Below are positions 7,428 through 54,800 of a stretch of 54,873 bases of DNA, in pieces. Positions within the stretch are counted from its first letter, which is position 1. Each line of letters opens with the position of its first letter. The notes beneath the pieces are model-generated. The model was not told where the DNA came from, did not search any database, and saw only the letters and a list, made by a program, of their open reading frames with translations. The stretch lies in NCBI GenBank assembly GCA_010405405.1, contig MU004240.1, forward strand, positions 1,684,814-1,739,686, written 5' to 3'. The stretch is from Microthyrium microscopicum (lineage: Eukaryota). The position numbers were made by a program, and so were the translations under genes.

Positions 7428-7475
7428 CTCTGTTGATATTGGCTCTGTTGATATTGGCTCTGTTGATATTGGCTC
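7428..7475 (+). repeat. 15-bp tandem repeat (CTCTGTTGATATTGG x3) downstream of paralogue 1
   Basis: Three direct copies visible. Confidence 0.85.
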
Positions 7476-10232: not shown

Positions 10233-11819
10233 TGTTGCTGCGATTGACTTGCTTGGTTTGAAGATACATTCACCGCAATCGAGCGAGATTACTGTTTTGG
10301 CTGGGGCTGTTGTTACTGGCTGCTGTTGTTGTTGGTTTCTGTTTGTCTTGGCTCACCAAGTTTGAGCTTCTGTTCTGATTTCGATCGTTATGACTAGTCG
10401 ATGTAGGCGAGCCTAAACTCAGCCTACATGGCCGATTTGGCTGCCAGAAGACAACCTGCTCCTGCATGAAGCGGGGAAAAGTACTTCGTTTATGTTTACT
10501 GTTTTAAAGATAGTCTTATAGAATATACAGTTGCTGCTTTGGTTTTGCATTTTCGATCGCCCCCCCCAGTTGCGACAAAAATAAGTATATAATCAATACA
10601 CTCCACGCTGATGCTTCTTCGAGTTTCAGCGGCACTAAAATGCTTTACCATGATGATCTAAACTGGCCGAACAGAGAACTGATATGTTGCCGTCTTGTGC
10701 AATACCGAAAATAGCCATAGATGGACTGCTACTTATCAGCTGTGATTTCGGCAAACTTTTGTTTGTTCAAAGTTTACTGATGATAACACATGACAGTCCA
10801 TGCCAATTATCAGAACTGAAAATGATCCAAGAACAATTTTGACAAGTCTGTAGCAGCTCTGGAGAACTCTCCAGTAGCGAATAACTGAAAATAGCAAATA
10901 ATGGTTATTGAAATTGTATGTCATCTATCAACTTGTTTCTGAAATTCAGAGGCTGTTTTCTTTCTAAAAAATTCGCTATATAACCGCTTTCTCCATAGCT
11001 TCTGTATCAAAGCCTTCTACGCAATCAAGTTTTCCACTTCTACCACTGCCTCTTAGAACATTTCAAACTGGTACAATTGCCTCCGTCAGCGTACATGGAT
11101 CCCGTTGGTGGCCTTCTGTTCTCGAGCGTATTATCTCCCAATGTCGGAGTTGCTTTTCATCGCCACTTATCAAACGCGATGAAGTTATAGTACGTTTTGG
11201 TTAGAGACACTGGTGGAAGCTAAAGAAGTAGTTGGGAGCGCCTCATTTATTCCCCTTGCTCCTCTTGAGATAACATCGTCTCCGGCAACGTTCTTATTCG
11301 AGGTCTGATTCTTGTCTTCGCTAGGCGTATCTTTGTAACCAGCCTTGTCTGCTGTAGGAAAGGGTAGGGGGATTGTTGTAGGGATATGGCCTCTCATGCT
11401 ATCTGTGGTTTCTTATAATCGCTGCTTCTGTCTCACGTTCTATATATCGTCTCTAAACTTTCAACTTCACCTCGTTGCACCTGATTACTCGTTGACACAA
11501 TTGGAGCTTAGAATCGCTCCTATCCACTATCATCTCTCACCTCCGACTCGCATCACTACCTACCAGAACTCTGTGTGCGATACTGCCAAAATTTCGACAA
11601 CCTCTCGAATCCGCCAACATCGCCATCACCTTCCTGTCCTCCACATAACACAACTTCAGCTCTTTACCCGCCAAGAAATATCTTATAATCATCGCGATAA
11701 CCTCACTTTCCCTATATCGCCTTCCTTCCAATACCTTTCTCGAATCGCCTCCACCAAATCTGGGTCGCTGCTTCATCTGTCTCTGTAGCATCAAATTCAC
11801 GCTCTCTTTCAGCATCAAC

Positions 11820-13392: not shown

Positions 13393-14234
13393 GAGGTCGC
13401 TTGCTTCTTCACGAAAGCTCTTCAAGATAATGGCAGGCTCGAGGTGATAGTTTGTGCTGGTTCTGTTGTTCGCAGTGGTTGTTATACTATGAAAATAATG
13501 TTTTGGTCTGAAGGTGTACGTACGGTTGTTGGTACTTTTACTGCTTCTGTTTCTGTTTTATACCCACTGTACTTCTGGTCCCTGGTTGATGCGTTGCTTT
13601 GGGATGGAGATTAATGTATAATGGAAGAGTGTTGGTCGCACTACTGAACTTAATATCGCTATTAATTGATATGCTTAGCATTATTTGGTCGGAGTTTTGG
13701 CTGTACAGTATTGATCATTCTTGGGTCGATTCAAATCCTCGTTGTTTATCTTTATTCTAGATAATAACAGTCCTGAGGAATTTCATTTTCTCCGTTGAAC
13801 TTTGGCAGTCGTGAGAAATCAATGCAGATTTTAACAAGATTTGCCATCGAAGGAGTTTTATCTATCATATAGAAATGGACGATTCCAGTCCTCTCTCGCC
13901 CATTACCTTTTAGATTGTAGTCATTGATAAACTCCCGCCAGAGTTCTGGTTTATCGATCTTGATCTTGGGGTATTTGCGTTGATAGCGCTTGACTGAAAG
14001 TTCATTAGTAGAGAATCATGACTTCGGGCTATCTAGCTAGCTCAAGTATAAGCTGCCACTACTCTGCTATGATTGTATTTGGTAGCGCTTTGTGTTTGGC
14101 CTTGATAGCATTGCCGCCATATCAAGTGCAGGGACGTAGACAAAAGAAATGGCATGCTCGCACCGAGTAACCTGTCAACCGCCGCAACGTATACAAAGCA
14201 TAGTACTCAATATTTGGTATACTCTTCTTCGTAG

Positions 14235-14972
14235 TCAATCACAGATGAGGGCGTCGATAACGAACGTAGCGGACGGGCGCCAAAGAAGCTTCAAGCTGAT
14301 GGGCGCAAGACATCTATAATGTCGATCGCTTGTTTGGAAGGGGAAGAACTTACTTTGTTGGATATAAGGCCCGACAACGAATTCCAAGGACGTTCCCCAG
14401 GCTATTGGTGGCGTATGTCTGAGAGGTGGATCCAGGATTGTGAGCTCCCACATAATGAAGCATAGATCGATTTTGCGAAGGCCTGGCAGATTTTTCAAGA
14501 CCTCCACTCCAGAGAACCGGATTGCCTCATCGTCTCCCATATCAAATGTCGAATGAGGCTCAAGGAGTTGGACAATGCATACTTGCTCTATGAGGTGCCG
14601 GTAAGGATGATGGGCAATACAGCCTGCATGGCATTCGCGGTGCGCTCTAAAAAAGTTTCGAGAATAAAGGACTTGCGATGCTTCGAGATGAATATGTCGG
14701 CTTGTGCGTAGCAGAGCAATATAATTGCCAATTGTTTTTGTTTCATTACTCATCTCTTCCAGAACGTGCTTACAGCCAAAAGACAGAGTAGAGTGGGTCT
14801 TCAGGGCCATGGAATAGACCATTTGGCGGATCTCGGTGGGAAGTTGCATAAACGGAAATGGACGGGACATCGCCATGTTGTTGATGGATGACGGGTTGGC
14901 TCTTGGACGGCGGGCTGAGCTTTGCCTCCTCATACCCCACCCTTCTTGCATTGAAGCAGGACGCTCTTGCAT
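14235..14972 (-). CDS. Hypothetical protein with an N-terminal F-box-like motif (245 aa; true start may be a downstream Met)
   Basis: PFPFMQLPTEIRQMVY followed by ALLRTSRHIHLEASQVLYSRNFF, the pattern of common fungal F-box-like orphan proteins. Confidence 0.7.
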   Translation of the reverse strand: MQERPASMQEGWGMRRQSSARRPRANPSSINNMAMSRPFPFMQLPTEIRQMVYSMALKTHSTLSFGCKHVLEEMSNETKTIGNYIALLRTSRHIHLEASQVLYSRNFFRAHRECHAGCIAHHPYRHLIEQVCIVQLLEPHSTFDMGDDEAIRFSGVEVLKNLPGLRKIDLCFIMWELTILDPPLRHTPPIAWGTSLEFVVGPYIQQSKFFPFQTSDRHYRCLAPISLKLLWRPSATFVIDALICD

Positions 14973-16099
14973 GGTTCGGGCGTTCTTTGCACGGAGCTGT
15001 ACAATCTTGATGATGGACCGCTGTTGTTGATGGTTGAATTGGACCTGTGTACGCGTTGCGTTGTGCTAGGAATTTGCGTAGAAAGCCAGACTAGAAGCAG
15101 AACGGAAGGTGGATACCTACCATGCCCGCTAACTTGCTTAGCGTTATGGCCTCAAGCATCTTGATATCTGTAAGAATTACGGAGTCCTTTTTTTGTACAT
15201 TTTCTTTTAAAGTGCATTGGTAACTAGAGGTAATCTATAAAGACCGGCGATAAGTTGTTTTGCGAATCTGGTCAGATACTCATGTTGTTATTTGATGAGA
15301 TGTATTGACAGAGTTCAGCCTGATGACTTTTCTTGGCAGCCTTGCGACTGGCACACTACTGCAATGCGACCCGCCGACCACATGCACGATACCATCCACT
15401 ATCTACAATTAAATTACAATATTCCGTACCGCCCTTAAGCTGATGAGATCAAGAGCAGGCCTGGACTCTATGTTGTCCAATCCCAATACGACTCCGGTCC
15501 CGAAAGATCCGCGAATTGCGCGTACTTCCGGCCGTGCAGTACCTCCTACCGGTAGGTACCTTTTGAACTTTCAACAGATCTTAAGTATGGCTATTTGAGC
15601 GGAAACGTGGCTTCCAGGAGGGTATTATTGCGCCAATCCTTCGATACAGGCTCCTGTGTTGCAAGAAACAGTGTTTTGATATCATAGAATTCGAAATGTA
15701 TATGTAGTTATGTGCATGTTATAAGTACCTAGCTTTTCAGATTTCGTCTTTGTCGCTTTCCAATAGGTTCGGTCTAAAAGCTACAGGTCCGACTCTGGGA
15801 TTACTCTTGGCTTTGCGTGAGCAGCACAGCGAACTTGTATACTCGTGCTCATCGCTTGGCTCTAGCGAAGTGTATTGGCAAAGTTAGTTTGTATTTCTCT
15901 TCCAAGCAAGTTTCACTATTCTTCTTGTAATTACGTAGGAAAAGGCGGGAGTAAACGAAGTCTTATTGTGATAGAGAATTTCCGACAACAAAGCCATATT
16001 GAGAAGCGATGGAGTTCTACATTTTACCATTAGGCGGTAGATCTCAAGTCGATCTGATTGCATAGTCCTCATTTAATTGCCAACCCTTAACATCTTATC

Positions 16100-18340
16100 T
16101 TTAACAGGTCTGACGTGGGACCAAACCGATTTCAAGAACTCTTTTGTTGCTCTTTTGGCCTGGCTCTGATTGAGCGCTTTGGACTGAGGTTGGTGCAACG
16201 TGGCGAGCCTCTTACAAGTCTGATATTGCTGCCAAGTACAAAAAGCTCAAGACCGACGGGCGATCCACCGGATCTATCTACGCGAACGTCACTCTGCTTG
16301 ATGACGGCCCTGCTCCCCAGAAGGAGCGCATTGCGAGCGGTCTCGCCGTGTCAAAGTTCAAATGGTGATTGACTAGAAGCTGAACGTTGTTGACCGTTTT
16401 GGTATCAAGATCACCAAGGAAGAGTTCATCGAGATCCAGCTGAACATTGGATACCAAACGACGCTTCCGTTTGAGGCAGCGCCCGACCCAAACCCTTCGA
16501 GGGAAGTATCGTGACGCTATAGAAGCCATAGGCATTCGAATACACTCTTAAATTGTATGCTGATCAATTTGGAGCTTAATCCTAACCTAATATCTACCAT
16601 GACAGTGTTTCGCCGTTGATCTGGTGAAAGAAACGGAGGAACAGGCCAAAGATGCGTTTTGGGCATTGCTTAACCGTTGGACGGAGCACTGCAAGCAAAA
16701 GTGGCAGAGTGTCGGAAACCGTGCCGGTCATCAGCAGACAGTTTGAACGGATACTGCAAATCCCATCTTTTTCTTCGACATATCAAGATCTACTTAGTAG
16801 ACATCTCTCCATTTTCGACCCATTCCATGCCATTCCATGGTTTAATAGTCTCTTTCATAGCTTTTGACTTCAATAATGAAATTCTTCCCATGCATACTGG
16901 ACTTGACAATAATAGGTGCTTGTCTGCAGTCAATCCAAGTTTTCCCACGACAAGCTGTGGGTGTCGTACCTAGTAGCCAATACGATGGGATAAATACAGA
17001 AGGTTCTGAATTGGCACTGGAACTGACAAAAAGCATCTGCCTACCCACATTCAGCCAACACAATTGTATCAGAATCGTTCGAGCGGTCCGTAAAATGAAC
17101 CTTGATAATGATATCCGCTCGGCGGTCTGCAGCTTGATGTGCCCGATATTGAGCCAACAAAGCAAGCTCGGTTACTACCAAGTTGTTCGTTTTAGATCGA
17201 GACTGATTCATACCACACTGTGCTGCAAATTTGCCCATCTCTAGCTGATGCAGTCGGATCAGAGAACATAGAGTTGGTTGTAGTCCTAGTTGCTGGCGTT
17301 GCCAACAGGAAGTCGAGCTTACCTACGCGCTAATGAGCTGTATTTTATCTCCCAGCTTCCCATACCTCCCTTAACTTGAGGCCATGCTTGCTACTTTCAC
17401 CGACTCCGCGCGGAAGTTACTCTCGCTCTTGAGCCGCGATGGAGAGACGGGCTAACCCATCATCAAAGAGCTGGGAGTCTCGAAGAAGAAATCGAATTGA
17501 CGACAGTATCGCCTGGCGCGACTCAGCTGGGGGTTACTCGCGGATATTCTACATGAACCTCGGAAGCAGAGCATACTGGAAGGTAAGATTTTGGCTCTAC
17601 TATCACATTTGCCGGGTTTCAGCACTTGATGGCTCCCATGACATTCGATGGCCGTTCCCACTAACGGACCGCAGACCAAGCTACAGCAGAGAAAACACTC
17701 AAAAATCCATTCAAGAACTGCAAAACAAAGTGAATGACACCAACACGGAGAACCGATCGCTCGTGAAAAAAGTGGATAGCCTGGAGCTTGAAAATAAGTC
17801 GCTTCAAAAAAGATCGGATCTGGTGGAGGTTGAATTGACGGAGCGACGTAAAACCACGATACCTCCACCCCATGATTCGGGGTTCTCGGACCCAAATGAA
17901 GATCTATGTGCTCTTGTTCAACAAGCGCTTGCACTAATTCTCCCAGTGAATCGACATGATCCCTATCAGTTGGCGTCGATCACCCCCTTACTCCTATATC
18001 TAGCTTGCACTTGACCGGCTATCAGGCTGCTCCCTCCGCCACCCTATCTACCCCTATGCCTCGTTCTGAAGTTGGAAAGCGAGCGCCACGCGCGCCTCGA
18101 TCAAGGAAATCCACGCCTTACGCAGCCAAAGCAACAGGCATAACTCGAATTCCCCTGCGTGTGACTGCCAAGCGACCCAAGCACGTTCTTTCATATCTGC
18201 AGAGAGCGCCTTATACTGGTGACGAATGTCGAAGATACCGACATCCAATCTCAGGCTGATGAACTAACAAAGAAATTGAATGCTGCCGTTGGCAAAAAGA
18301 TAAAGTTAGGCTATACTGAGTCACATGGAGATATCGCCTC
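16100..18340 (+). pseudogene. Decayed multi-exon gene with a coiled-coil segment (copy A of a diverged pair); boundaries approximate
   Basis: Intron-like GTAAGA(17583)...CTAAC...CAG, heptad-rich segment QKSIQELQNKVNDTNTENRSLVKKVDSLELENKSL, frameshifts and stops. Collinear similarity to 20860-21750. Confidence 0.5.
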
Positions 18341-18521
18341 AAGATATGTGTAGAAAGAAACTACTTGTTGTTTCCTGGTTTTGATATCTACCAACCCACA
18401 ACTGCTACGTGCACAAGGCCAACATGAAATTTGGCACAGGCCTCAAGTTGGAAGACTTATACCTTTTTTGGCTTCCTGAGCGCAAGCTGACCATCGGCCT
18501 GAAAGCTATTGCCCTCAAGAC

Positions 18522-18988
18522 TTAGGCCTGCGGCCAAGGTAGTTTGCTTGGCGTGCTATCCGACGGAGACGTAGTCTTGATGGAGCTCCTCGACATGACC
18601 AGCCACAGCAACACAATCAGTGTCCAGCTTGTGGATAGCTTCAGGATTCCAGGTCGTTTGGTGTTGGTGGTAGCGGCGACCAAGGTCATCGTTCTTCTCT
18701 TAAATTCATATTAGTGTCCGTTCCAGGACATCAGACCAGAGAGGACTACCTGAAATGTGCCACTATTCAGAAGCTTCTGAGCATCGGAGACCGCCTGGAA
18801 ATACTCCATTACTTGGTCGTGAATGCTTTCGTTCTTGGCATTAATGTTACCAAGCTCTTGAGTGACCGTGTTCAGTTCAGTCTTGAGGCTTCTGTATGAT
18901 TAATGAATACTAGCCAACCGTATCAGGTTTAAGCGACTTAAAAAGCAACTTACGCGACGGCTGGATCTCCAGGGTAGTTTAAGGCCAT
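18522..18988 (-). CDS. Candidate small spliced gene or pseudogene missed by the ORF track (MALNYPGDPAVASLKTELNTVTQELGNINAKNESIHDQVMEYFQAVSDAQKLLNSGTFQ...)
   Basis: ATG at 18988. Intron GTAAGT(18953)...CAG(18892) joins an open helical exon 18891-18750. A second probable intron (GTAGTC...ACTAAT...AAG) follows; the frame of the last exon is ambiguous. Confidence 0.4.
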
Positions 18989-27696: not shown

Positions 27697-29070
27697 AGTG
27701 TTGGTTTGAACCTAACCGTAGCTAGTTGAGTCAGGATAAACCCCAGAGAACGAAAAGCAGGCCCACCGGCAGGGTGTCACTGCAGCCGGTAGTGTTGTTT
27801 GAACCTGACCGTGGCCAACCTTGTGGAGCGGCAATGGACCCTATCGCAGGCCGCTTCATAGCCAACACAGTAGCTCCAGGAACTGGTTTCACGATGGCGC
27901 CGGAGCTGGTGGTGTTGGCTTGAAGCTGACCGCAGCCAGCCTTGCGGAGTCATAATGAACACCATAGGCTGCTTCATTGGAGCCGGTGGTGATGGTCTGA
28001 ACCTGACCATGGATCTCACGGGCCAATCATAGGCTGCTTCATTGCCAACACTGTGGCTCCAGGAACTGGTCTCGCGACAGCATTGTAGCCGGTGCTGTTG
28101 TTCTGGAAACCTGAATACAGCAAACTCCGTGTTCAACATGGCATCCGACGACCAAACTGCCCATGGTATTGGTTTGCACCTCACCGCAGCCAACCTCGTG
28201 AAGCGGCAATGGACCACATAGGCAGACTGTAGGCTGCTTCATTGCTAACACAGTCGCTGCAGGAACAGCTTGAGCGACAGCCTTGCCGGCGGTGTTAGCT
28301 TGAATCTGAACGCAGCCAACATCGCGTTCATCATGGAGCCAGAATGGAATCTGGAGGCCAAACCGCCAATGGTGTTGGTTCGAACCTGACCGCAGCCGCA
28401 ATGAAACGCGCAAGCCGAGCAACAAGCCGCTTCACTGTGAAGCCCACAGGCCGCCAGGCTAGCCGCAGTCAACTTCATGGATCCCAGCTACTCCATTGCC
28501 AGCATTGAGCCATTGGTGTTGGCTGAACATGATCGCAGCCGCAATGAAACGCGCAAGCCGAGCAACAAGCCGCTTCACTGTGAAGCCCACAGGCCGCCAG
28601 GCTAGCCGCAGTCAACTTCATGGATCCCAGCCATTCCATTACCAGCATTGGAGCAGGTGGTGTTGGTTTGAACATAACCGCAGCCGCAATGAACTCGCAG
28701 ACCCAGCAGCAAGCCGCTTCACTGACTCATTGGCGTCTGTTGAAACCAAGCTGGAACCAAGTCCGTGATTGTCGTGGAGTCAAAATGAAGCCCACAAACC
28801 GCGCATTGGAACTAGGGTAACCGTAGTAAGCTGTCAAGGAGGCCAGAAGGTAAACAGGAGGCCGAGCAGGCAGCCATTCCATTGCTAGCATCGGAGTCAG
28901 TGGTGTTAAATCGCACATTACCACAACCGCAAGGAACTCGCATACCCAGCAGCAAGCCGCTTCACTAGTTCATTGGCATTCGATGGAAGGAGACCACGGC
29001 CAACTTCGTGATCATTATGAAGCCACAATAGACCGGACCGCCGGCAGTGTTGGATGAACAGACACCAGCC
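27697..29070. repeat. Degenerate GC-rich array of about 12 copies of GGTGTTGGTTTGAACCTGACCGCAGCC, with higher-order duplications
   Basis: Motif cores near 27703, 27796, 27917, 27994, 28100, 28171, 28297, 28377, 28521, 28665, 28905 and 29050. Near-identical duplicate 28391-28488 / 28534-28631. No consistent reading frame. Confidence 0.8.
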
Positions 29071-29275
29071 AAGTGTGTATTTATCGGGGAGTCATATTGA
29101 AGCCTATGAGCACTCCTAACTACTATTGTTAAATATCGGATAGGCGTAGAAGATTTAATATAGCCTATATACTTACTAAGAGGAGGGTATCCAAGATTTA
29201 AAAAGTATAAAATAAATATCTTATATAATAAATAATATTTAAATTAAGATATAAATAAGCTAAAAAATATAGAAT

Positions 29276-32600: not shown

Positions 32601-35600
32601 CTATAGTATTTAATCTACTCTAATGCTAGTATTTTAATTAATATTAGTAGTAGTATAATAAAAATTATTAACCTTTATTATCTTTAGCAATATAATATTT
32701 CTACTTTTTAACTTATATATCTATACTTAGTAATACTTATTAATAGTAAGTTAGTATCTATAATTAATTAAACTACTATTCTTAATTTACGTATTAGATA
32801 CTATATTAAGTAAATTAGCTATTTCGTTATAAAAGTAGCCTTTTATAATCTAATCTTAGGAGTACCCTAGCTAAATTAATATAAAGTTAACCTATATAGA
32901 GATTTAAAAATATTAACTTTTTATAATATAAAATATATTATAAATTATATTATATTATAATGCTTAATTACTATAAACTTAAAAGAACGATTTATAAACT
33001 TAGAATTACTTAAAGAATTAGATATTACTTTTATATCTATAGTAGCGTTTAAGAAACTAATAAAGCGTAAAGACGCTATAGTTAATATATTCTAGCTTAA
33101 AGATTTTAATAACGAAAAAGAAAAGAAACCTCCTAATAGTAATAAAGATAATAATAATAAATTTACTATAAACCTTACTATATATACTATATTAAAAGAA
33201 AATTATTTTAAATAGTAAAATAAGTAAGATTACTCTTATTTATTAAGAGAGAAGATCTTAAAACTTATTCTAAAACGTTTCTACTAATATTTTAAAGTCT
33301 TTAATCTAAAGCGTTTAAATATCCTTACGCCTTATTATAGTAAATATAACTACGCTATTAATTTTATTCCTAATACTAAAATTCTAAAACGCTAATCTAT
33401 ATTAATATTACTAAAATAAGCCTTAGTTATTAAATAATATATTAAAAGTCTACTCTAGCGTAGTTTTGCTATAAGTTTAAAATCTTAATATACTATACCT
33501 ATACTTTATATAAGTAAGCTAGGAGAAGATATCTATATTTATATTAATTATTATAGATTAAATAATATTACTATTAAAAATAGTAATATTCTACTACTTA
33601 TTAGTAAGATACTTATATACTTTATAAAGGTAAAGTATTACTCTAAGTTTAATATTATTACTACCTTTAAACGTATTTATATTAAACCTAAAAATAAATA
33701 TAAAATAGTATTCTTAATATACTATAGCCTATTTAAGTTTAAAGTACTACTTTTTAGCCTTATAGAGGAACTAAGAATATTCTAAGTATATATTAATTAT
33801 ACGCTAATATAGTTTTTAGATAATTTTATAACTATTTATTTAAATAATATTCTAATATTTAGTAAAATACTAAAAGAATATAACGCTTATATATATTTAG
33901 TACTAGACGTATTAAAATATATAGGCTTATTTCTTAATATTAAGAAGTTAGAGTTTGCTATTTAAAAAGTAAAATACCTTAGTCTAATTATTACTATAAA
34001 AGGTATTAAGATAAATCCTTTAAAGATTAATATAGTAGTTAACTAGAAATAACTAAGCTATCTTAAAGATATTTAGGCGTTCCTTAAATTTACTAACTTC
34101 TACTAATAGTTTATCTTTAATTACTCTACTATAGTAATACTCTTAATAAATCTTACTTAGAAGGATACTTTAGCTATATTCTCCTAGAATCTTAATAAGC
34201 CTAAAGAATAAGCTTTTAAGAAGCTAAAAGTAGACTTTACTAGTACGCTAATACTTTAATACTTTAACTATATTAAGGAAACTTAGATAGAGATAGATAT
34301 ATTAAATTAAGCTTATACTACTATATTATTATAAAAAGATATAAATAGTAATCTAAAACTAGTTACTTTCCTTTCTAAAAAAATATTACTAGTAAAATAT
34401 AATTATAATATTTATAATAAGAAACTACTTACTATTATCTATACTTTTAAGAAATAAAAACTTAAGTTATTTAGTACTAAAGATATTATAAAGATATTCT
34501 TAGATTATTAAAATCTTTAAATCTTTATAAAGACTAAGAAGCTTATATACTATTAAATACGCTAAGCTAAATTCCTATTATAGTTTTACTTCTTAATTAA
34601 GTATTATCTTAGTAAAGATAATAGTAAAGCTAACGCTTTAATCTAAAGATTATAGAATATACTCTAAAGTAATAAAGACTTATAGATTAAGTAATAGTAT
34701 TAACTACTTTTATTCTTATATTAATTTAGTACTAAATAAGCTATTAAACTAGTAGTAATACTTATTAACTCTATTACTTTATCCTTTATATAGATAGCTA
34801 TACTTATATTAAATAAGCTAAATATTACTATAGTAAAGAAGTCTAATTTAGAACCTATTATAGAAAGCTCTTAGAATAGAGCTCTAGCTAGTTTAGATAA
34901 TTTACTACTAGTTAATACTAAATCCCTAGATTTTAACCTAGAGTAGTTTATATAAAAAGTAATAAAGGTAAGTAAGGAAAATAAGTTACTTATTATAATC
35001 TAACTAGTAAAAGTATAGAAAGACTACTTCTTACTCTTTAGTATACTAGATTAAAATTAAATTAAATTAATAGATTATAAGGCTTTACTAAATAGTATTA
35101 TCTTCTATTAATAAAAATTATTTATACTAATAACGTATTTATAGAATAAAGTAATAAAACAAGCGTATTAATATAAAGTTATAAGTTATAAAAGAACTAT
35201 AATAACTTACTACTACTTTTAATAAGATTATTAGTAGTTAAGAATATTAAAATATATTAAAAAATATATTAAAGATTATTACTATATCTTTATAAAACTA
35301 ATACGCTAAAAGAAATAAAGACTCCTTCATTTATTTCTTTTACTAAATTAGGCTTAGTCTAATATCTCTATAGACTTTACTATTTTACTACTATATTATA
35401 TATACTAAGGTATAGTTTACTAGTATATTATAGTTATTATTAATTATTTAATGTAATTATAATAGTTTATTACTCTTCTAAGTCTTTTAGTAAAAATAAT
35501 AGTTATAGTATTTATTAATTAAGTATAGAAGTTATATAGTTAGCTAGATTCTATCTTTTTAGATTAAGAAACTTAATTTATATCTACCTTTTAGAGTTAC

Positions 35601-36875
35601 CTATATAAATATATAAGTATTATATTAAGATTAAGTACTATATAGTATCTAGAGTCTAATAGTATTACTAAAATAACTATTACTACCTTAAAATAGTATC
35701 TTAGATTCTTTATTAATTAGAATTAGAATAATTAGGTAGCTCTATTACTATTTACTAAATTTATAGTAAATTTTACTATAAGTACTACTACTAGTTTTAT
35801 ACCTTTTAAGATATAAAATAGTTTTTTACTAAAATTAGGACTTAAGTCTACTTACTATTTACTACTTAAAGTATTATACGCTTCTATTATAATGTATAAA
35901 GAAGTTATTACTACTAATTAAGTATAAAATAGTTAAGAAAAGCTTTATAAGTTCTTAAAAGAGTAATTAGTATAAGCTTAAGCTTAATAAAAGCTCTACG
36001 CTAATAAATATTAACGTTTAGCACTAGATCTTTATTCTAAAAACTAAGTACGCCTTAACGTTTAAAATTATAATATAACTTACTCTTTAAAAATACTTAA
36101 TAGTAAAAGCGCTAGTTCCTTTAAGGTATTACGTAAAATTAATAAAGTAACCTATAAATTAGATCTTTCTAAATTAATAAAGATATATTTAGTATTCTAT
36201 GCTTAGCTACTATATCTAATTAATAATAACGTATACCTATTATAGGAATTAAACTCGCCCTTAGTAGTTATTAATAAAAAAGAAGATAAAAAGGAATAGC
36301 TTATTAATACTATTATTAATAATAAATAGAATAGTAGAGACAAAAATAAGATACTTAAATATAAGATTAAATAAATAGAATTTTATAATAAAACTTAGTA
36401 GCCCTAGAAAAATACTATTAATATACCTAATACTATATTAGAATTCTATAAGCTTTATCCTTAGAAGCTTAGTCTATACCCTTCTTAGTCTTTACTAGTA
36501 AATAAAGTTAAAGAAAAAGATTATAATACTAATAAACTACCTATAGATTAGAATTATATAGTATAAAAAGCGTTATATTTATTTATTTTTACTAAAGTAT
36601 TATACTTCTAGTTTAGTTTTTTTAATTTATACTACTAAAGAAATTATAGAATACTATAAACTAGCTTAAATAGATATCCTTTTCTTTATTAAATAGATTT
36701 AAATAGTACTAAGGTAAGTAGATAGTATATTACTATATTTCTTAGTAGTAATATATATAAAGAAGTTTTATATTTATATAAACTAGCCTAGCCTAGCCTA
36801 GATTAGCCTAAACTAAACTAGAATAAATTAAATTAAGATATAGCCTATAAGGTTTATTTTAAAGAAGGAGAGTTA

Positions 36876-37204: not shown

Positions 37205-38030
37205 AGAATTATAAAATAAAATAAACTATTAATTTAGAATAGATAGAATTTAATAAAAGTAGATATAAAAGTTCTAAGTAAGATAAGTAAATTTAATATT
37301 TAATAAAGTAAATATATAGAGATTTATAAATTAGCTTAATTTACTATTATAACTTATAATATAAATATTATAAGTATAACTAAATAATTAATATCTAGAT
37401 TAAATTAGTATTTAATTTAATAGTAAGCCTAAAGAAGTATACTACTCTTAATAATATTATATACTACGTCTAACTTATATAATAATAATATATTACTACT
37501 AATTTATACTACTTTAAGAACTTTTAAACTTCTAAACTTTTATTTTAGTAGTAAAAATTATCTTTATTTATAATAAAATTACTAATATTTAATAAGGTAG
37601 CGCTCTTATATAATATTATAACTTACTTAAAAGGGTCTAATAAGCTATACGTAGGTTTTAGTATAGTTATAAGATTATATTTTAAATAAAGATATTAATT
37701 TATAAAAAAGCTTATTAAATTTAGTAAAGAAATATTCTTTATAAGGACTACTTACTTATAATATCTTTCCTAAAGTAGGCTATATATAGATTTTAATATA
37801 ATTATAAAAATATATTATAAGTAAAGATATTAATTTATAACGAAGCTTAAAAGAAGCTTACTAAATTTAATAAAAAAATATTCTTTAAGCTATATATAGA
37901 TTTTAGTATAGTTATAGAAATATATTATATATAAAGATATTAGTTTATAAAGAAGCTTACTAAGTAAGAGAATATTCTTTAAGCTATATATAGATTTTAG
38001 TATAGTTATAAAAATATATTATAAGTAAAG

Positions 38031-38125
38031 NNNNNNNNNNNNNNNNNNNNNNNNNNNNNNNNNNNNNNNNNNNNNNNNNNNNNNNNNNNNNNNNNNNNNN
38101 NNNNNNNNNNNNNNNNNNNNNNNNN
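38031..38125. other. Assembly gap (95 N) between two different tandem arrays
   Basis: Run of N with about 94-bp units on the left and about 110-bp units on the right. Confidence 0.99.
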
Positions 38126-40097: not shown

Positions 40098-42824
40098 TAT
40101 AATAAGCTATAGAACTTAAGTAAGTAGATAATTAGATTATATTCTAGAATTTATAAATAAAAGAAAGAGAAAAAAAGATTTAGAAAAGCTATAGATTTAT
40201 AAAGAAAGTAAGTCTACTTAGTAAATCCTTAGGCGTACTAATCCCTTTAGGTCTAGTATATAATCTTATAATAAGATCTTTCTTATAATACTACTATAAA
40301 GCTTATAAAGAAGAATTATTATATAACTTCTCTCTTTAGTATAGCTTTCTAGGCTATAAACTACTAATTATATTTACTTTTCTAATCTATTTTATTTTAA
40401 TTTAGTCTAGTCTAATCTAGTCTAGTCTAGTCTAGTCTAGTCTAATAAACTTTTAGTAATAAATAATATTTTAATTCTTTTATAGTATAATATTAACCTT
40501 ACTAGTTATTTAAAGCATCTTAACCTCTAGCCTACTAAGGTAACTATTAAGAAGTATTAATAAACCTTAAAATATCCTTAGAATACTCTAGTTCTTAAGT
40601 CCTAGTAGTCTAGTAGTTAGTAATCTTATTAATATAAGAAAATTAGTAATATAATTATTTACTTCTCCTAATTAGTAAGAACGCTATTAAAGTTATAATT
40701 AATACTATTACTAGTAGGCTCTAGTATTAGTAGTATCTAGGTAAGATATAGACTTAGCTTATTAAAGTACTAAGTATAAAACTTAGTAATAAGCTCTAGT
40801 ATATTCTTAATAACTATTTAATTATACTATTTAGCTTTATTATAACTAGTATACTTAATCTTATATTATAGCTTCTTATATTAACTAGTAAAGTAGCTAT
40901 TAATAATAGTATTAATAAATTATTTATTATTATTTATAGTTTCTCTAATAACTACTAGTAGTAAATTAGTATACTTAAGTAGCTTAGTATTATCTATAAT
41001 ATAGTAGAGAACTTAGGCGTAGAAAATATTATATATCTTTATAAAAGAAGAGAGATTAAGTTTATAGATAATAGTATTAATCTTTTTAATTATATAAAAA
41101 GAGCCTATATTCTTATTATCTAGAGTCTTTAAAAGATATAAAGTAAAGTAGTTCTATATATCTAAGTAAACCTAATTACTTAGTACTAGATCTAAAGCTA
41201 TATAGTAATAATAGTTAGTATATTCTATCTACTAAGCTTATATCTAGATTAATTACTTTATTAAGTAATTATATATCTTAGCGTAACTTATTTATATTAT
41301 ATTTATATTAATAGCTTCTTTATTAGTAGTTATAAAGGCGTTTATAGGTTTTAGAAAGTAATATAAGAACTTAAGACCTAATTAAGAATTAAATTTATTT
41401 TAAGCTTTAAAAGGTATAACTTTTATAATAGTATTTATAGTAAAATTAACTATAAATTTAGTAAAGAGTAGAAGGACTATCTAGTTATCTTAATTCTAAT
41501 TAATAAATATATATAGAAATTACTTAAGTATAGTAACTAAAATTTCTATTATACTATTAGTCTTAAAGTAGAATACTATACTAAAATAGAGTATTATATT
41601 TATATATTTATATAAGCACTTCTAAAATATAAAGGTAAATTAACTACTATAGTCTAAAAGAATTATTAATAGCTAGCTAATAAGCTTTTATATATAGTTA
41701 ATAAAGGCTAATACTATTAAGTCTATAAATAGATCTAATAGTAAAATAAAATATTAAGTTTATATATATTAGTTAATAACTACTATAACGTATTAGTAGA
41801 TTATATCTTAGTATAAATAGTAAGATAATAAGATAGTAAAGTTAATAAAGATATTAGACTATATATACTTAAGAAAAAAGAATTAACGTAGGAAGCTTTA
41901 CTTCTTTTAATAAATAGATTTAATAAATATATATTTATAATCTTTAATAAAGCTCTTAATATTCTATAATATCTTAGACTACTAGTAATTTTTTTATAAG
42001 TAGTAATAAGTTATTACTACTTTATTATAGCTTATAGCTTTATAGCTATACGCGCTCTATATAGTATAATGCTAAAGCTTACTTTAAGAAATAAAGATTT
42101 AGTTATAATAAAGAATTATCTTATTAGTAGCTACTATATAGTCTCTAAGCTTAATCTATTCTTATTTTAAAATACTAAAAGATAAGAAGAGCTAGTAGTT
42201 AGTTTTAGTATAGTAAATAGTAATTATTATTTTATTATACTTTATTACATTTATAATATTTTATAGAAACTAGTTACTATTAAAATCTAGAAATAAGTTA
42301 TCTCTTAAAGAATTAAGTAGCTTATTCTTAAGCGTCTTCTTATTATTAAGAGACTCTTCTATAGAATTAAGTAGCTTATTTATAGAATTAAAAATATCTA
42401 ACTTATTCTAAGTAATAGTAGCTAAGTATAGTATTAAAAGGTAAATAAGTTTAATAAGTAATATAGCTAGCTTTACTATGTATTCTATATTAAATTAGTA
42501 TAGAAATAGTAAAAATTAAACTTATTAAGAAACGTAAAGGTTGTTATTACTTTATAAGATATCTTATAACTAATAAGTAAAGGTATTTACCTTTCTATTA
42601 GCTATACCTAAATAGTACTTTATCTTAAAGTAAAACTAAGAGAGAAACTTAGCCTATCTAGCTTATTATTAAAAAAAACGTTTTATTATTATAAATATTT
42701 AAAGGTTATAGTAATTAGAGAATACTTAAATAGAGTTAATAGAGCTAAATAGCTCTAGTTCCTACTTTTTAAATACGTAGATAATAGCTAGAAGCTCTTT
42801 ATTATAAATATTATAATTATATTC
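40098..42824 (-). mobile_element. Truncated RIP-mutated Ty3/gypsy element (RNase H, integrase, 3' LTR at about 40098-40323), cut by element X copy 2
   Basis: The minus strand de-RIPs to ECNYDIYDKELLAII near 42800 and an integrase core near 41400-41600 similar to 35640-35810. PPT near 40327-40337. LTR termini TATAATAA...TTATTATA. Confidence 0.8.
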
Positions 42825-42997
42825 TAACTACTATTATTAAATATTAAATAGGTATAAGAGATTTAATATAGCCTATATACTTACTAAGAAGAGAGTATCT
42901 AAGATTTAAAAAGTATTAGGTAAATATCTTATATAATAAATAATATTTAAATTAAAATATAAGTAAACTAAAAGATATAGAATTATAAAATAAGATA

Positions 42998-44200
42998 GGG
43001 GGGAGTAGTACAGTAGTAGTACTTGCGATCTCGCGGCAGGCCCTACCTGTTTGAGAATCCGCAGGGCACGGGTTCGATTCCCGTCTCCCCCACCACCCCA
43101 AAAAAGGCAATCGTTACTCGCTTTTAAAGCCACGTTCACCACTTTTTAGGGAAGGTTATCCTTCCCTTTTTAGCAGGTGTGGAGGACGAGCTACAGCTCT
43201 TTTTAACACGTCGCGGAAGGTGCAAATTTTTGTATCACGTGACCGCTGTATGCAGCCACAAGATCATCCTTGTCGAAGCCCCACCAACCAACAACGGACT
43301 AGCGTCAAAAATCACATGATTGGAAACCAGCCACAGCCACACGGCACGCAAAGCCACCAAAAAACAAGCCACAATACCACCGAAGCGCAGCAAAATCGGC
43401 ATGCCGAGACAATTCTTTTACGGCTCTTGGCAACTAGATCGGAGGATCGGCCCTGGCTCAGTAAGCTCGAAATCTAGCCGCGTGAGGCGAGATCGGACCG
43501 AACGACACGGCAGTAAATCACGGCATCTAAGGACACCACGGCTCGGTAAGTACAGTACCCACGGGTCGGCATAACGGCGCTACAAGATAAGTCGGCAGAC
43601 TTGGGGAAAGTAACCCAGAACACGCTGGGCCGAAGGACCCTAGATCTCGGCTCGAAAGCGAAGCACAGCGTAGCGGATAGCCCTCGGCAAACCAGCGGCG
43701 CTGCCTCGGATTCGGTATTTAACGGCAAGAATAGAGGGATCTAACACAATAACAAGGAGGGAATCTCGGCCCCTCGGGGGACGACAATATCGGCAACTTT
43801 AGGAACTTGAAGCAGTAGACCGAACGGAAGAACAATAACCCGTAACGGATACCAGCCTAGAGAGGTGCCGCGGCTAGATATTACCCAGAATTCGGCTCTC
43901 CTAACCTACTAATGCTTCCGTGGCTCGGGAAGCCGATGGGGCTTAGCATAGTATTAACGGCCTCGGCACGGATCGGCCTACGAAACACGATAGCAGGGTT
44001 TTCCCTTATATAGTTAGCGCCTTGGTTTGCCGAACATGTAGGGATTAGCCGAAGCCGGACCAGGCCCCAGGCCTGGAGTAAGCCGGCTCGGCTAGATTCG
44101 GATAGATCGGCTAATTAGATAAGGGTTTTTACCCGCTTATTAAGAGTAGCGTCTGCATAGCCCATTAGCGTAGCTGAAAGACAATAAACAAGATTCAATA
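42998..44200 (+). mobile_element. tRNA-headed SINE-like retroposon (about 1.2 kb), GC-rich, lightly RIP-mutated
   Basis: 13-bp TSD ATAAAATAAGATA (42985-42997 and 44201-44213); the empty site is seen in copies 1 and 3 of the host repeat. The 5' end is a tRNA-like cloverleaf and the 3' end is an A-rich CAATAAACAAGATTCAATA tail. Confidence 0.8.
42999..43095 (+). tRNA. tRNA-like sequence (possibly Ala-CGC-derived, intron-like insert, encoded CCA); probably a SINE head or pseudo-tRNA
   Basis: Acceptor stem GGGGGAG/CTCCCCC followed by A-CCA; D arm GTAC-AGTAGTA-GTAC; T arm ACGGG-TTCGATT-CCCGT (B box GGTTCGATTCC). The anticodon arm is imperfect and G3:U70 is absent. Confidence 0.7.
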
Positions 44201-46884
44201 ATAAAATAAGATAAACTATTAATTTAGAATAAATAGAATTTAATAGAAGTAGGTATAAAAGTCTTAAGTAAAATAAGTAAATCTAATATTTAATAAAGTA
44301 AATATATAGAGATTTATAAATTAGCTTAACTTACTACTATAACTTATAATATAAATATTATAAGTATAACTAAATAATTAATATTTAGATTAGATTAGTA
44401 TTTAATCTAATAGTAAGTCTAAAGGAGTATGCTACTCTTAATAATATTACCTACTACGTTTAACTTATAGTATATTACTACTAATCTATACTACTTTAAG
44501 AACTTTTAAACTTTTAAACTTCTATTTTAGTAGTAGAAATTATCTTTATTTATAATAGAGTTACTAATATTTAGTAAAGTAGTACTTTTATATAATACTA
44601 TAGCTTACTTAGAAAGGTCTAGTAGGCTATATATAGGTTTTAGTATAGTTATAGAGTTATATTTTAGGTAAAGATATTAGTTTATAAAGAAGCTTACTAA
44701 ATTTAGTAAGAGAATATTCTTTATAAAGACTACTTACTTATAATATCTCTTCTAAGATAAGCTATATATAGATTTTAGTATAGTTATAAGTATATATTAT
44801 AGGTAAAGATATTAATTTATAAAGAAGCTTACTAGATTTAGTAAGAAAATATTCTCTAAGCTATATATAGATTTTAGTATAATTATAAAAATATATTATA
44901 AGTAAAGATATTAGTTTATAAAAAAGCTTACTAAGTAAAAGAATATTCTTTAAGCTATATATAGATTTTAGTATAGTTATAAAAATATATTATAAATAAA
45001 GATATTAATTTATAAAGAAGCTTACTAAGTAAGAAAATATTCTTTAAACTATATATAGATTTTAGTATAGTTATAGAAATATATTATAAGTAAAGATATT
45101 AGTTTATAGGAAAGCTTACTAAGTAAAGAAATATTTTTTAAGCTATATATAAATTTTAGTATAGTTATAAGAATATATTATAAATAAAAATATTAGTTTA
45201 TAGAGAAGCTTATTAAGTAAGGAAATATTCTTTAAACTATACGTAGATTTTAGTATAATTATAGAGACGTATTATAAGTAAAAGATATTAATTTATAGAG
45301 AAGCTTACTAAGTAAGAAAATATTCTTTAAGCTATATATAGATTTTAGTATAGTTATAGAAATATATTATAAATAAAGATATTAGTTTATAGAGAAGCTT
45401 ACTAAATTTAGTAAGAAAATATTTTTTAGAAGGACTATACTTATAATATCTTTTCTAAAATAGCTTTAATAAATAAAATAATACTATATAAAGGTTTTAA
45501 TTAAGATAAATATTATAGAGCTTCTTTTTTAAAAAGATAAAAGTATAGTTAGAGATTTATAATTATAGTAAAATTTAGTAAAGCTTAGTAATAGTAGTTC
45601 CTTACTAAATTACTTTATAGATAAGCCTTAGCTATAATATTCCTTTAGTAGTATTATTCCTTTTATATATATTATTCTTTTAAGTTAGATATTATATCTT
45701 AGTAGTAAAAAAAGCGTAATTCCTTATTAAATAATATTATTCTAGTACGTTATTCTTTTTACTTATAACTACTTTATTAATTTCTAGTAAGTCTAAGTTA
45801 CTAAAGACTTCTATCTCTTTAGCTATAACGTCTTTTAATACTTTTCTACTACTAATTTATATTTCTAAAAGTAATATTTAGCTTCTAATATAATTATATA
45901 AGCTTTAAAATATTAATATAAAGTATTTTAGACTTCTTTATATATATTATATAAAGTAAAGTTACGTTTTAGTAAGTCTATATTTCTTAGCTTATATACT
46001 AAACTATTATATATACTATTTAGCTTACTAATTAATAGAACTACTAATACTAAAGGCGTAAATATTCTTTATAAATATTAATTATCTTATAAAACGTATC
46101 TATACTTAAATATTTAAGAGGCTAGCTTACTATTATAGAATACTATACTATAAAGAATATAAAAAAAGTAAGAAAATAATATAAGATTAGTATTAGAATA
46201 GTTAGTACTACTATATAATAATCTTATAAAGCTAAATTATATATAAGTTTATCTTTCCTTATTAAATTAAGTATAACTAATATAATTAAATAATAGAATT
46301 ATAATAAAGAAGGTTTAATAAAGTAAGATTTTATAGTATTAAGAAAAAGAAAGACTATAACTCTAATCTAGCTATTATATCTAAGTAGTACTAAGCTAGT
46401 TTATATAGTAAGTAGTATATATACCTAAGTCTTATTAAGCTACTCTATAGCTATATTAAGAGCTAAATAAGTAGAAAAATAATATTTTTTTAGCTCTTTT
46501 ATAAAAGAAGAAAAAAAAATATTATTTATAATTATCTAAAAAATTTTATATAACTTAAAATTATATAGAATTTATAGTAATTATTCAAGCTTATACTATA
46601 TAGTAGTTTTATACCTACGTAGTCTTATTATAATAATCTAGTAGTAAGTATTACTTTAGAAATAACGTCTTACTACTATAAAGTAAGCCTTCTTAGTTAA
46701 AAAGCTCTTTCTATTTCTTAATTCTATATTCTCTAATATAGTATACTTTTATAGCTATCTAATTTAAATATAAAGCCTACTATACTATTCCTCTCTTAGA
46801 ACTACTTAAAAGAATATATATAGTAAAATACTTTATAGTAAAATACTTAGTATTTTTCTTATAATATACGCTTTATAGATAACC

Positions 46885-51851: not shown

Positions 51852-54800
51852 TAACTACTATTATTAAATATTAGATAGGTATAGAAGATTTAATATAGCT
51901 TATATACTTACTAAGAGGAAGGCATTTAAGATTTAAAAAGTATTAGGTAAATATCTTATATAATAAATAATATTTAAATTAAAATATAAGTAGGCTAAAA
52001 GATATAGAATTATAAAATAAAATAAACTATTAATTTAGAATAAATAGAATTTAATAGAAGTAAGTAAAAAAGTCCTAAGTAAGATAAGTAAATCTAATAT
52101 TTAATAAGGTAAATATATAGGAATTTATAAATTAGCTTAATTTACTATTATAGCTTACAATATAAATATTATAAGTATAACTAAATAATTAATATTTAGA
52201 TTAGATTAGTATTTAATCTAATAGTAAGCCTAAAGAGGTACGCTACTCTTAATAATATTATTTACTACGTCTAACTTATAGTATATTATTACTAATTTAT
52301 ACTACTTTAAAAACTTCTAAACTTCTAAACTTCTATATTAGTAGTAGAAATTATCTTTATTTATAATAGAGTTACTAATATTTAGTAAGGTAGCGCCTTT
52401 ATATAATACTATAGCTTACTTAGAAGGGTCTAGTAGGCTATATATAGGTTTTAGTATAGTTATAGAGTTATATTTTAAGTAAAGATATTAGTTTATAAAG
52501 AAGCTTACTAAATTTAGTAAGAAAATATTCTTTATAAAGACTACTTACTTATAATATCTCTTCTAAGGTAGGCTGTACGTAGATTTTAGTATAGTTATAA
52601 GAATATATTATAAATAAAGATATTAGTTTATAAGAAAGCTTACTAAATTTAGTATAGAAATATTCTTTAGAAGGACTATACTTATAATATTTTCTCTAAA
52701 GTAGACTATATATAGAGTTTAGTATAGTTATAGGAATATATTATAAATAAAAATATTAGTTTATAGGAAAGCTTACTAGATTTAGAGAAGAAATATTCTT
52801 TAAGCTATACGTAGATTTTAGTATAGTTATAGAAATATATTATAAGTAAAGATATTAGTTTACGTAGAAGCTTATTAGATTTAGTAAAGAAATATTCTTT
52901 AAGCTTTTAGTATAGTTATAGAAATATATTATAAATAAAGATATTAATTTATAGAGAAGCTTACTAAATTTAGTAAGAGAATATTCTTTAAGCTTTTAGT
53001 ATAGTTATAGAAATATATTATAGATAAAGATATTAATTTATAAAGAAGCTTACTAAGTAAGAGAATATTCTTTAAGCTATATATAGATTTTAGTATAATT
53101 ATAAAGACGTATTATAAATAAAGATATTAGTTTATAAGAAAGCTTACTAAGTAAGAAAATATTCTTTAAGCTATACGTAGATTTTAGTATAATTATAAGA
53201 ATATATTATAAGTAAAAATATTAATTTATAAAAAAGCTTACTAAGTAAGAGAATATTCTTTAAGCTATATATAAATTTTAGTATAGTTATAAAAACGTAT
53301 TATAGATAAAGATATTAGTTTATAGAAAAGCTTATTAAGTAAAAGAATATTCTTTAAGCTATATATAAATTTTAGTATAATTATAGAGATATATTATAGA
53401 TAAAGATATTAGTTTATAAAAAAGCTTACTAAATTTAGTAAGGAAATATTCTTTAAGTAAACTATACTTATAATATTTTTTTTAAAATAGCTTTAATAAA
53501 TAAAATAATACTATATAAGAGTTTTAATTAAAGTAAATACTATAAAGCTCTTTTCTTAAAAGAATAAAAGTATAGTTAGGAATTTATAACTATAGTAAAG
53601 TTTAGTAAAGCTTAGTAATAGTAATTTCTTACTAAATTACCTTATAGGTAAGCCTTAGCTATAATATTCCTTTAGTAGTATTATTACTTTATATAGTTAT
53701 TTCTTTAGGTTAAGCGTTATATCTTAGTAGTAAGAAGGGCGTAAATCCTTACTAAATAAAGTTATTTTAGTACGTTATCCTTTTTACTTATAACTACTTT
53801 ACTAACTTCTAGTAAGTCTAAGTTACTAAAGACTTCTATTCCTTTAGCTATAACGTCTTTTAATACTTTTCTACTACTAATTTATATCTTTAAAAGTAAT
53901 ATTTAACTTTTAATATAATTACGTAAGTTTTAAAACGTTAATATAAAGTATTTTAAACTTCTTTATATATATTATATAAGGTAAAGTTATATTTTAGTAG
54001 GCTTATATTTCTTAGCTTACGTACTAAATTATTATATATACTATTTAGCTTACTAATTAGTAGAACTATTAATACTAAAGGCGTAAGTATTTCTTATAAA
54101 TACTAATTATCTTATAAAATATATTTATACTTATATATCTAAGAAGCTAGCTTACTATTATAGAATACTATACTATAAAAAATATAAAAAAAGTAAGAAA
54201 ATAGCGTAAGATTAGTACTAAAATAGTTAGTACTACTATATAATAATTTTATAAAGCTAAATTATATATAAGTTTATTTTTCTTTATTAAATTAAGTATA
54301 ACTAATACAATTAAGTAATAGAATTATAGTAGAAAAGATTTAGTAAAGTAAGATTTTTTAGTATTAAAGAAGAGTAAAACTATAACTCTAATCTAGTTAT
54401 TATATCTAAGTAGTACTAAGCTAGTTTATATAGTAAGTAGTATATATACTTAAGACTTACTAAGCTACTCTATAATTATATTTAGAGCTAAGTATACTTA
54501 AGCTAAATTTTTTTTTAGCTATATTATAAAAGAATAGAAAAATTAATTAGCTAATTTAACTAAATAATTATTATTTTATATAATTTAAAATTATATAGAA
54601 TTTATAATAATTATTTAAGCTTATACTATATAGTAGTTTTATACTTATATAGTCTTACTATACTAAATCTTAATAATCTAGTAGTAAGTATTACTTTAAG
54701 AATAACGTTCTACTACTATAGAGTAAGTTTTTTTAGTTAAAAGGCTTTCTCTATTTCTTAATTCTATATTCTCTAGTGTAGTATACTTCTATAGCTATCT

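Follow-up and report, generated by a model that had tools for sequence, protein, structure and literature searches.

What is a GC-rich, tRNA-headed segment of DNA doing in the middle of degraded fungal repeats, and how did it come to be there? The question is raised by a stretch of 54,873 nucleotides from Microthyrium microscopicum (GenBank assembly GCA_010405405.1, contig MU004240.1, positions 1,684,814–1,739,686 of the forward strand), which is referred to below in its full length as the window and in which position 1 is the first letter. The segment in question occupies 42998–44200. A first-pass annotation made from the sequence alone had taken it for a member of a family of short interspersed elements (SINEs) mobilized by a long interspersed element (LINE). 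We conclude that it is very probably a young copy, almost free of mutations, from a LINE-dependent, SINE-like family of tRNA-headed, non-autonomous retroposons that codes for no protein and has multiple copies. The parts of the locus on which the argument depends are the following.

42985–42997, no strand: left copy of the target-site duplication (TSD), ATAAAATAAGATA; read in the sequence and single in sister copies of the host repeat.
42998, plus strand: extra G ahead of tRNA base 1; read in the sequence.
42999–43095, plus strand: complete tRNA-like head of 97 bases; Rfam, ARAGORN with introns allowed, fold and motifs.
43034–43058, plus strand: intron-like insert of 25 nt, directly 3' of tRNA position 37; ARAGORN and minimum-free-energy (MFE) structure.
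43096–44108, plus strand: non-coding body; open reading frame (ORF), Pfam, Rfam, composition and motif analyses.
44109–44200, plus strand: 3' tail region, ending ...AAGATTCAATA; contig match, depth and fold.
44201–44213, no strand: right copy of the TSD, ATAAAATAAGATA; read in the sequence.
52012–52024, no strand: unfilled site in the first sister copy of the host repeat; blastn and alignment, in which the match to the left flank ends at 52024 and that to the right flank begins at 52012.
37211–37223, no strand: unfilled site in the second sister copy; the right flank matches from 37211, and the sequence reads AGAATT, a single 13-mer and then AACTATT.

The segment is 1203 bp long and has a GC fraction of 0.525 (52.5%), within DNA of 18–20% GC that has been degraded by repeat-induced point mutation (RIP); the 3-kb flanks have GC fractions of 0.196 and 0.176. 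Both 13-bp copies of ATAAAATAAGATA are exact and the match extends on neither side. At the first sister copy, the matches to the left and right flanks overlap by exactly the 13 TSD bases, and in the alignment both sister copies run uninterrupted through one 13-mer, with one A/G difference. A third sister of the host repeat (29.1–29.3 kb) has already diverged ahead of the site. The unfilled form is also found in assembled contigs of public sequencing runs (described below), where a joint of 42986 to 44203 is present in two contigs from run X1 and one from run X2. The GC-rich island in AT-rich DNA, the perfect 13-bp duplication and the empty site in two sister copies, all of which had been pointed out in the first-pass annotation, are borne out by these data, and the segment is a true insertion with a 13-bp TSD and not a chance repeat.

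At its 5' end the insert carries a complete tRNA-like sequence. The Rfam tRNA model matches 42999–43092 over its full length with 50.2 bits (E = 1.9e-09, gathering score 29), the anticodon loop being 32 nt long where the model has 9. Run without introns, ARAGORN finds no tRNA in the element; with introns allowed, it reports one tRNA at 42999–43095 with the anticodon CTC (43030–43032) and a 25-nt intron at 43034–43058. The acceptor stem pairs at 7/7 positions, the T arm is perfect, and the discriminator A (43092) is followed by an encoded CCA (43093–43095). The B box GGTTCGATTCC (43071–43081) matches at 11/11 positions, and an A-box-like site TAGTACAGTAG (43006–43016) has mismatches at 2/9 of the specified positions of the consensus TRGCNNAGTGG. 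A tRNA-derived head with internal A and B boxes, as in tRNA-derived SINEs, is thus present. The MFE fold of the head (−42.9 kcal/mol, z −3.14) pairs the anticodon and G37 with UGAGA of the insert, places the 3' junction in a 3-nt bulge and folds the rest of the insert as a hairpin, GGCAGG/CCUGUU, around CCCUA. We take this fold to be the standard architecture of nuclear pre-tRNA introns. The tRNA cloverleaf behind one extra G, the intron-like hairpin, and the odd combination of an intron with an encoded CCA had each been noticed from the letters, and each is recovered here by the Rfam match, the ARAGORN placement or the fold, as well as in the sequence itself.

The head also bears on an origin at the DNA level, by which the insert would be a miniature inverted-repeat transposable element (MITE) or other DNA transposon, or a filler fragment carrying a tRNA gene with its downstream terminator. 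Runs of four and five T (T4 and T5) lie 27–50 nt downstream of the head, as in an ordinary tRNA transcription unit. However, nuclear tRNA genes do not normally encode CCA, and the TSDs known for DNA transposon superfamilies are shorter than 13 bp. No terminal inverted repeats were found in the element, the only inverted pair being internal (16 nt, 81% complementary), and the family described below has defined ends and a 3' bias. We regard such an event as exceedingly improbable.

Behind the head, the body is non-coding. The longest stop-to-stop frame, of 140 amino acids, passes through the tRNA; the sole ATG version is 43250–43477, and 1-nt and 6-nt insertions or deletions in other copies, at 43288, 43328, 43358 and 43406, break this only ATG frame. 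No Pfam family was detected in the element in six frames read through stops, and no Rfam family besides tRNA at E values up to 1; a sub-threshold match of the Rfam scan to a bacterial small RNA, overlapping the tRNA, was set aside as chance. Protein-coding capacity is absent, as in tRNA-derived SINEs, in agreement with the earlier description of a body of ∼1.1 kb without a convincing ORF. The plus strand of the element contains 339 A against 233 T, an excess resembling that in the sense strand of many non-LTR (long terminal repeat) elements. TpG is depleted in the element (observed/expected 0.52) and TpA raised (1.17), which suggests either mild one-stranded RIP or the survival of C/G only where RIP cannot act.

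In the window the last letters of the tail are ...GATTCAATA; one contig from another organism (organism C below) has ...GATTCAACAAC, as read from a 30-letter loose end. An A-rich tail had been claimed for the element; it is A-rich, and the 3' end quoted for it is correct, but it is not a poly(A) tail. The fold of 44051–44200 has a z score of −2.03, and the tail (44109–44200) is a candidate recognition site for the partner reverse transcriptase.

Further copies are represented in the public runs. Six runs contain part of the element: X1–X4 are from one sample of organism A, X5 is from organism B and X6 is from organism C, and the share of sampled element words is 0.64–0.86 in the organism A runs, 0.28 in organism B and 0.23 in organism C. 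The X1–X4 sample is probably the source of the window. Contigs of X1, X2, X5 and X6 were aligned on 42600–44600 at 80% likeness, and the rows examined are 40 out of 397 for differences, 24 out of 168 for loose ends and 32 out of 896 for pieces. X1 contributes 560 pieces on 42600–44600 (142 at 99% or above, 141 at 95–99%, 182 at 90–95% and 95 below 90%), and in this run the element is split into many short variant contigs. Another letter is found in ten X1 contigs at 43141 and in six at 44067, with up to ten at a single place. Transitions predominate among the differences (C>T, 123 places; G>A, 91; A>G, 60; T>C, 40; no transversion class exceeds 9), as expected of copies hit by RIP. Organism A therefore has many copies, several of them more RIP-mutated than the copy in the window.

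The 5' end of these copies is fixed. Among the loose ends listed, the match to the element breaks off immediately before 42999 in three contigs of X1 and in a 1399-nt contig of X6, and the flanks beyond are unrelated to the window and mutually different, so that a 5' end at tRNA base 1 is common to the copies. In these contigs the last flank letter is A and not G, and the G at 42998 is therefore private to the window copy. The 1399-nt X6 contig spans 42999–43443, through the CCA and the head–body junction, with 13 other letters and 10 gaps; the identical junction is thus found under another organism label. Several X1 contigs also cover this junction, with only 1-nt length changes in the C/A runs at 43096 and 43100.

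The constancy of the junction is relevant to whether the locus could be a one-off or repeatedly re-made chimeric retrocopy in which the tRNA lies outside any transposing unit. In the U6–L1 chimeras of mammals and the WEIRD/Mg-SINE/MGL chimeras of Magnaporthe, a full-length small RNA is fused head-to-tail to other sequence and 14-bp direct repeats are present (PMC2104539). A full-length small RNA, here with its CCA, fusion in the same orientation and a TSD all belong to the chimera features listed in that source, and the intron-plus-CCA state of the head points to an origin at the RNA level. The chimeras as portrayed there (PMC2104539), however, are individual dead ends in which the 3' part is cut at varying sites, whereas the present family propagates one fixed junction, seen in the window, in the X1 contigs and in the X6 contig. 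Many variant copies exist, rather than a single junction or a set of varying ones. As an account of the family we find a chimeric retrocopy highly unlikely; by analogy, formation of a LINE-made chimera is the likely way in which the founder of the retroposon family arose.

The 3' ends of other copies point to truncation from the 5' side. Among the loose ends listed, unrelated sequence gives way to the element at 44024 in one X6 contig and at 44143 in another, and a 1514-nt X6 contig matches 44109–44198 with one other letter, beyond which its flank differs from that of the window. A 14-nt word, AACATTAAAAATGA, is common to the flanks that lie before 44024 and behind 44198; if the two 30-letter consensus strings from which it is read belong to one locus, it is probably the TSD of a 5'-truncated copy in organism C with a tail ending ...GATTCAACAAC. 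Pieces from organism B (X5) cover 43036–43357, 43359–43523 (no differences in 165 nt), 43659–43885 and 43846–44031. Copies or parts of the family are found under three organism labels, and on contig evidence the family consists of many copies that are dispersed among different flanks yet have their ends in common, as expected of a SINE. The single-copy alternative, which the first-pass annotation had named as a refutation of its proposal, does not hold in view of the variant contigs, the other flanks and the three labels. A loose end before 43990 in X1 and X2 was considered as a further truncation and rejected; judged by eye, it resembles a diverged form of the sequence that lies upstream within the element itself. 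In metagenome contigs, a 20-mer from the tail gave no matches and a 25-mer from the head gave one, an irrelevant hit to a bacterial tRNA-Leu beside a tRNA-Cys.

The summed depth of the contigs increases in the 3' direction, with 31,250 in the last X1 bin and 3,573–18,842 in the other element bins; such sums are not copy numbers and serve only as a hint of 3' bias. This bias and the tail-only junctions are also expected if a longer parent shares the tail, and the element might then be an internally deleted derivative of an autonomous, tRNA-headed LINE of 5–7 kb that shares both of its ends. The length of the element, too great for an ordinary SINE, is compatible with such a parent. Against this, the body contains no remnant of a reverse transcriptase or endonuclease (Pfam, six frames) and, as a weak point, no contig among the rows listed leaves the element internally into coding sequence. 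We know of no LINE with a tRNA head, and consider a deleted LINE a quite unlikely source of the family.

The tail-only copies, the ends and the length of the TSD likewise bear on a solo LTR or an element of the Helenus type (TRIMp3; TRIM, terminal-repeat retrotransposon in miniature), that is, an LTR with a tRNA-derived RNA polymerase III (Pol III) promoter moved by an LTR retrotransposon. Helenus resembles the present element in being a mobile, non-coding fungal retroelement with tRNA-derived sequence, such sequences occurring in the LTRs of fungal TRIMs (PMC10886601), and Ty3/Gypsy remnants surround the site. As characterized in the source, though, Helenus has two LTRs, a primer-binding site, a polypurine tract, 5-bp TSDs and basidiomycete hosts (Pucciniales and some Agaricomycetes, not ascomycetes), none of which holds here, where the TSD is 13 bp long (PMC10886601). 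Furthermore, the element begins GGGGGG and ends CAATA, and not TG...CA; it has no long direct repeats, an internal search having returned only two 10-nt arrays and three weak two-copy direct repeats; and tail-only truncated copies fit target-primed reverse transcription rather than an integrase. There is in our judgement next to no chance that the insert is an LTR of this kind.

The most probable reading is copying of a non-autonomous RNA by a LINE enzyme. LINE insertions are often truncated at the 5' end, terminate in A-rich or microsatellite sequence at the 3' end and have TSDs of 10–20 bp (PMC2104539), and elements of the I clade end in short repeats such as TAA (PMC3747384). The TSDs of 13–14 bp, the fixed 5' end, the 5'-truncated copies, the A-rich tail that is not poly(A), the lack of coding capacity and the many copies therefore argue for target-primed copying, and the tRNA head then places the family in the class of tRNA-derived SINEs. 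TSDs of variable length (∼5–20 bp) with an unfilled site are also a mark of SINEs, the two values here being 13 bp and, probably, 14 nt in organism C. Under this scheme, an RNA extending from tRNA base 1 to ...GATTCAA(TA) would be recognized through its 3' tail by a reverse transcriptase that a resident LINE encodes; in a Pezizomycotina fungus this LINE would most probably, on prior grounds only, be of the Tad1/I clade. The LINE enzyme would nick AT-rich DNA, prime on the nick and copy the RNA; an early stop of reverse transcription would yield the 5'-truncated copies, and staggered cleavage of the second strand would yield the 13–14-bp duplications.

The state of the head may record how the family began. 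Yeast tRNA splicing is cytoplasmic and follows end maturation, and unspliced pre-tRNA bearing CCA is therefore expected where LINE particles assemble. We propose that a reverse transcriptase, having copied the body RNA as far as its 5' end, changed to a new template, a pre-tRNA that was end-matured, with its CCA, yet still unspliced; intron and CCA would then occur together because the head was copied from such a molecule. An origin from strong-stop DNA (a tRNA primer with antisense U5) was set aside by reasoning: the sequence behind the CCA is unlike an antisense LTR end, and this origin is disfavoured because a primer tRNA would be spliced.

Several points weigh against identification as a LINE-dependent, tRNA-headed SINE-like family. 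With 1203 bp, the element lies outside the usual SINE size of roughly 80–700 bp. No partner LINE was seen, as neither an RVT_1 nor an endonuclease domain was detected in 29001–54873 (six frames, X at stops), and the sole reverse-transcriptase remnants in the window are of the Ty3/Gypsy type (RT_RNaseH_2, E = 2.3e-12; SH3_Tf2-1). No second copy was found in the 54.9-kb window by blastn (word size 7); nor was one found on the plus strand in purine/pyrimidine space, which tolerates RIP, using 60-nt windows at 85% or above, and a single borderline match at threshold on the minus strand (51/60) is taken for chance. Other copies are known entirely from short contigs assembled in public runs, and this applies also to the 14-nt TSD with its single-locus assumption. 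The head is not a perfect tRNA: the GG usual in a D loop is missing from its own (AGUAGUA), and it has A at position 32 and C at position 38. The departures in the D loop and in the A box could both be TpG-to-TpA or CpA-to-TpA changes, to judge from the letters. The label Glu(CTC) given by ARAGORN is doubtful, the acceptor stem being apparently unlike that of eukaryotic tRNA-Glu. Finally, SINEs are defined by Pol III transcription, and the sense strand, with its five T5 and three T4 runs, speaks against such transcription here. Of the LINE-mobilized SINE family first proposed, what stands is a multi-copy, tRNA-headed, non-coding family with the marks of target priming; the 1203 bp and the five T5 runs speak against a SINE in the strict sense, short and transcribed by Pol III.

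How the family is transcribed is not straightforward. The Pol III promoter boxes are present (B box intact, A box slightly degraded) alongside T5 runs at 43143–43147, 43167–43171, 43200–43204, 43227–43231 and 44126–44130 and T4 runs at 43122, 43416 and 43999. T5 runs just behind the head had been reported at 43143, which is correct, and at 43166, which is really 43167; there are five in all. From the boxes, Pol III could initiate at the head. The T runs should stop most Pol III molecules ∼30–140 nt behind the head, and the T5 runs by themselves within ∼50–140 nt of it, so that full-length RNA needs either rare read-through or another polymerase. It is possible, if doubtful, that the head serves as an RNA-processing cassette on read-through transcripts of RNA polymerase II (Pol II) rather than as a Pol III promoter. 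An RNase P cut at tRNA base 1 would then define the 5' end common to the copies and the encoded CCA, which is an anti-determinant for tRNase Z, would prevent cleavage between the head and the 1.1-kb body. Such a cassette would account for the T5 runs that follow the head, for a 5' end placed precisely at base 1 and for the complete acceptor stem with CCA. It would be a protein-enzyme counterpart of the ribozymes resembling that of hepatitis delta virus (HDV) by which R2 and L1Tc retrotransposon RNAs have their 5' ends released (PMC3383444, PMC4035085).

Some local features of the body may be recorded here. On the plus strand, TCGG occurs 21 times in 43396–44110 (19 per kb, compared with 2.6 per kb in genic DNA), and TCGGC occurs 13 times against 1.3 expected, a count reached by 0/2000 Markov shuffles. 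TCGG(C) is strand-asymmetric, with no wider shared motif or context and no fixed spacing. A perfect 16-nt palindrome, GGAAGGTTATCCTTCC, at 43150–43165 lies between two 8-nt direct repeats, CTTTTTAG (43142–43173), each of which contains one T5 run; palindrome and repeats look like a small duplication, or else the footprint of an insertion, within the element. A deletion variant joining 43031 to 43142, found in one contig each of X1 and X2, ends exactly at 43142. The word ATCACGTGA and its one-off variant ATCACATGA lie at 43234–43242 and 43311–43319, ∼140 and 215 nt behind the head. We take them to be E-box/Cbf1-type sites, and they could be part of an internal Pol II promoter.

The setting of the insertion is a compartmented one. 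Positions 1–29,000 of the window are gene-bearing, with 44–55% GC and Pfam matches to SLAC1, Brix and 2EXR/DUF7730, which fit a filamentous ascomycete, and from ∼29 kb to the end the GC content is 13–25%. The border, at 28,500–29,100, is isochore-like and abrupt, passing from genic DNA of ∼55% GC to RIP-degraded DNA of ∼20% GC. In the two 3-kb flanks of the insert, the ratio (CpA+TpG)/(ApC+GpT) is 0.02 and 0.01, compared with 1.28 in the genic part, and TpA/ApT is 1.6–1.7, compared with 0.74; these values are the signature of RIP taken nearly to completion. RIP-decayed Ty3/Gypsy remnants lie in the AT-rich part at 34197–34578 (plus), 36090–36213 (plus) and 41013–41129 (minus), with domains identified in six-frame reads with X at stops as RT_RNaseH_2 (E = 2.3e-12), RT_RNaseH (E = 3.8e-08) and two pieces of integrase SH3_Tf2-1. 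Arrays of ∼94-bp tandem units at 44681–45462, 52492–53489 and 37692–38030 follow the insertion site and each sister copy of the host repeat at a distance of ∼0.5 kb downstream. The host repeat is thus a RIP-degraded element that carries a satellite and has at least three copies in 26 kb. An assembly gap of 95 N (38031–38125) falls within the tandem-repeat region.

An unmutated copy amid repeats destroyed by RIP means that the family moved after the surrounding repeats had been destroyed, and a non-LTR retrotransposition machinery has therefore been active recently despite a strong genome defence. Insertions of this kind are useful as presence/absence markers, and they can seed new RIP and new regulatory sites. 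If SINE heads arise from RNA by template switching, a head with both intron and CCA is what one would expect to see, and the element offers a concrete, testable example for this old model of SINE origin. The coexistence of Pol III boxes and terminators poses the more general question of how long tRNA-headed elements are transcribed.

Literature searches with exact words from four stretches of the element gave no match, and keyword searches found no 1.2-kb tRNA-headed fungal element; neither the length of 1203 bp nor the intron-like insert together with CCA was met in the parts of the fungal SINE literature examined. The closest systems are nevertheless informative. Mg-SINE of Magnaporthe, with about 100 copies, Foxy of Fusarium oxysporum and other tRNA-derived fungal SINEs share with the present element a tRNA-related head with A and B boxes, a non-coding body, copies dispersed in ascomycete genomes and TSDs of the LINE type (PMC5063351). 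Compared by description only, the element is longer (1203 bp) than the fungal SINEs whose sizes are given in that source, which run from Mg-SINE (472 bp) and nrs1 (500 bp) through Eg-R1 (Egr1; 700 bp) and mgsr1 (800 bp) to EGH24 (900 bp) (PMC5063351). It differs from these SINEs, too, in that the head comprises an entire tRNA, including CCA and an intron-like insert, and is closely followed by T5 runs.

The AfuSINE2 elements of Aspergillus fumigatus are low-copy, 140–493 bp long and flanked by TSDs of 4–14 bp (PMC5063351). One of them, AfuSINE2-1a, is a tRNA-Arg SINE whose 3' region resembles the 3' untranslated region of the Tad1-clade LINEs I-4_AO and I-1_AF; like the present element it has a tRNA-derived head, with a 5' tRNA-related CCA end marked in the table of the source, and it has a short 3'-terminal repeat (PMC5063351). 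It differs in belonging to a shorter class and in its demonstrated LINE-like tail (PMC5063351). A CCA on the head of a fungal SINE and a partnership with a Tad1 LINE thus both have precedent in the elements described there (PMC5063351). Nearer in length are Eg-R1 and EGH24 of Blumeria graminis, at 700 and 900 bp, which in the same account are long, non-autonomous, SINE-like retroposons of an ascomycete, as is the present element (PMC5063351). Blumeria is reported to lack RIP (PMC10648671), whereas the element described here stands unmutated within extremely RIP-degraded DNA.

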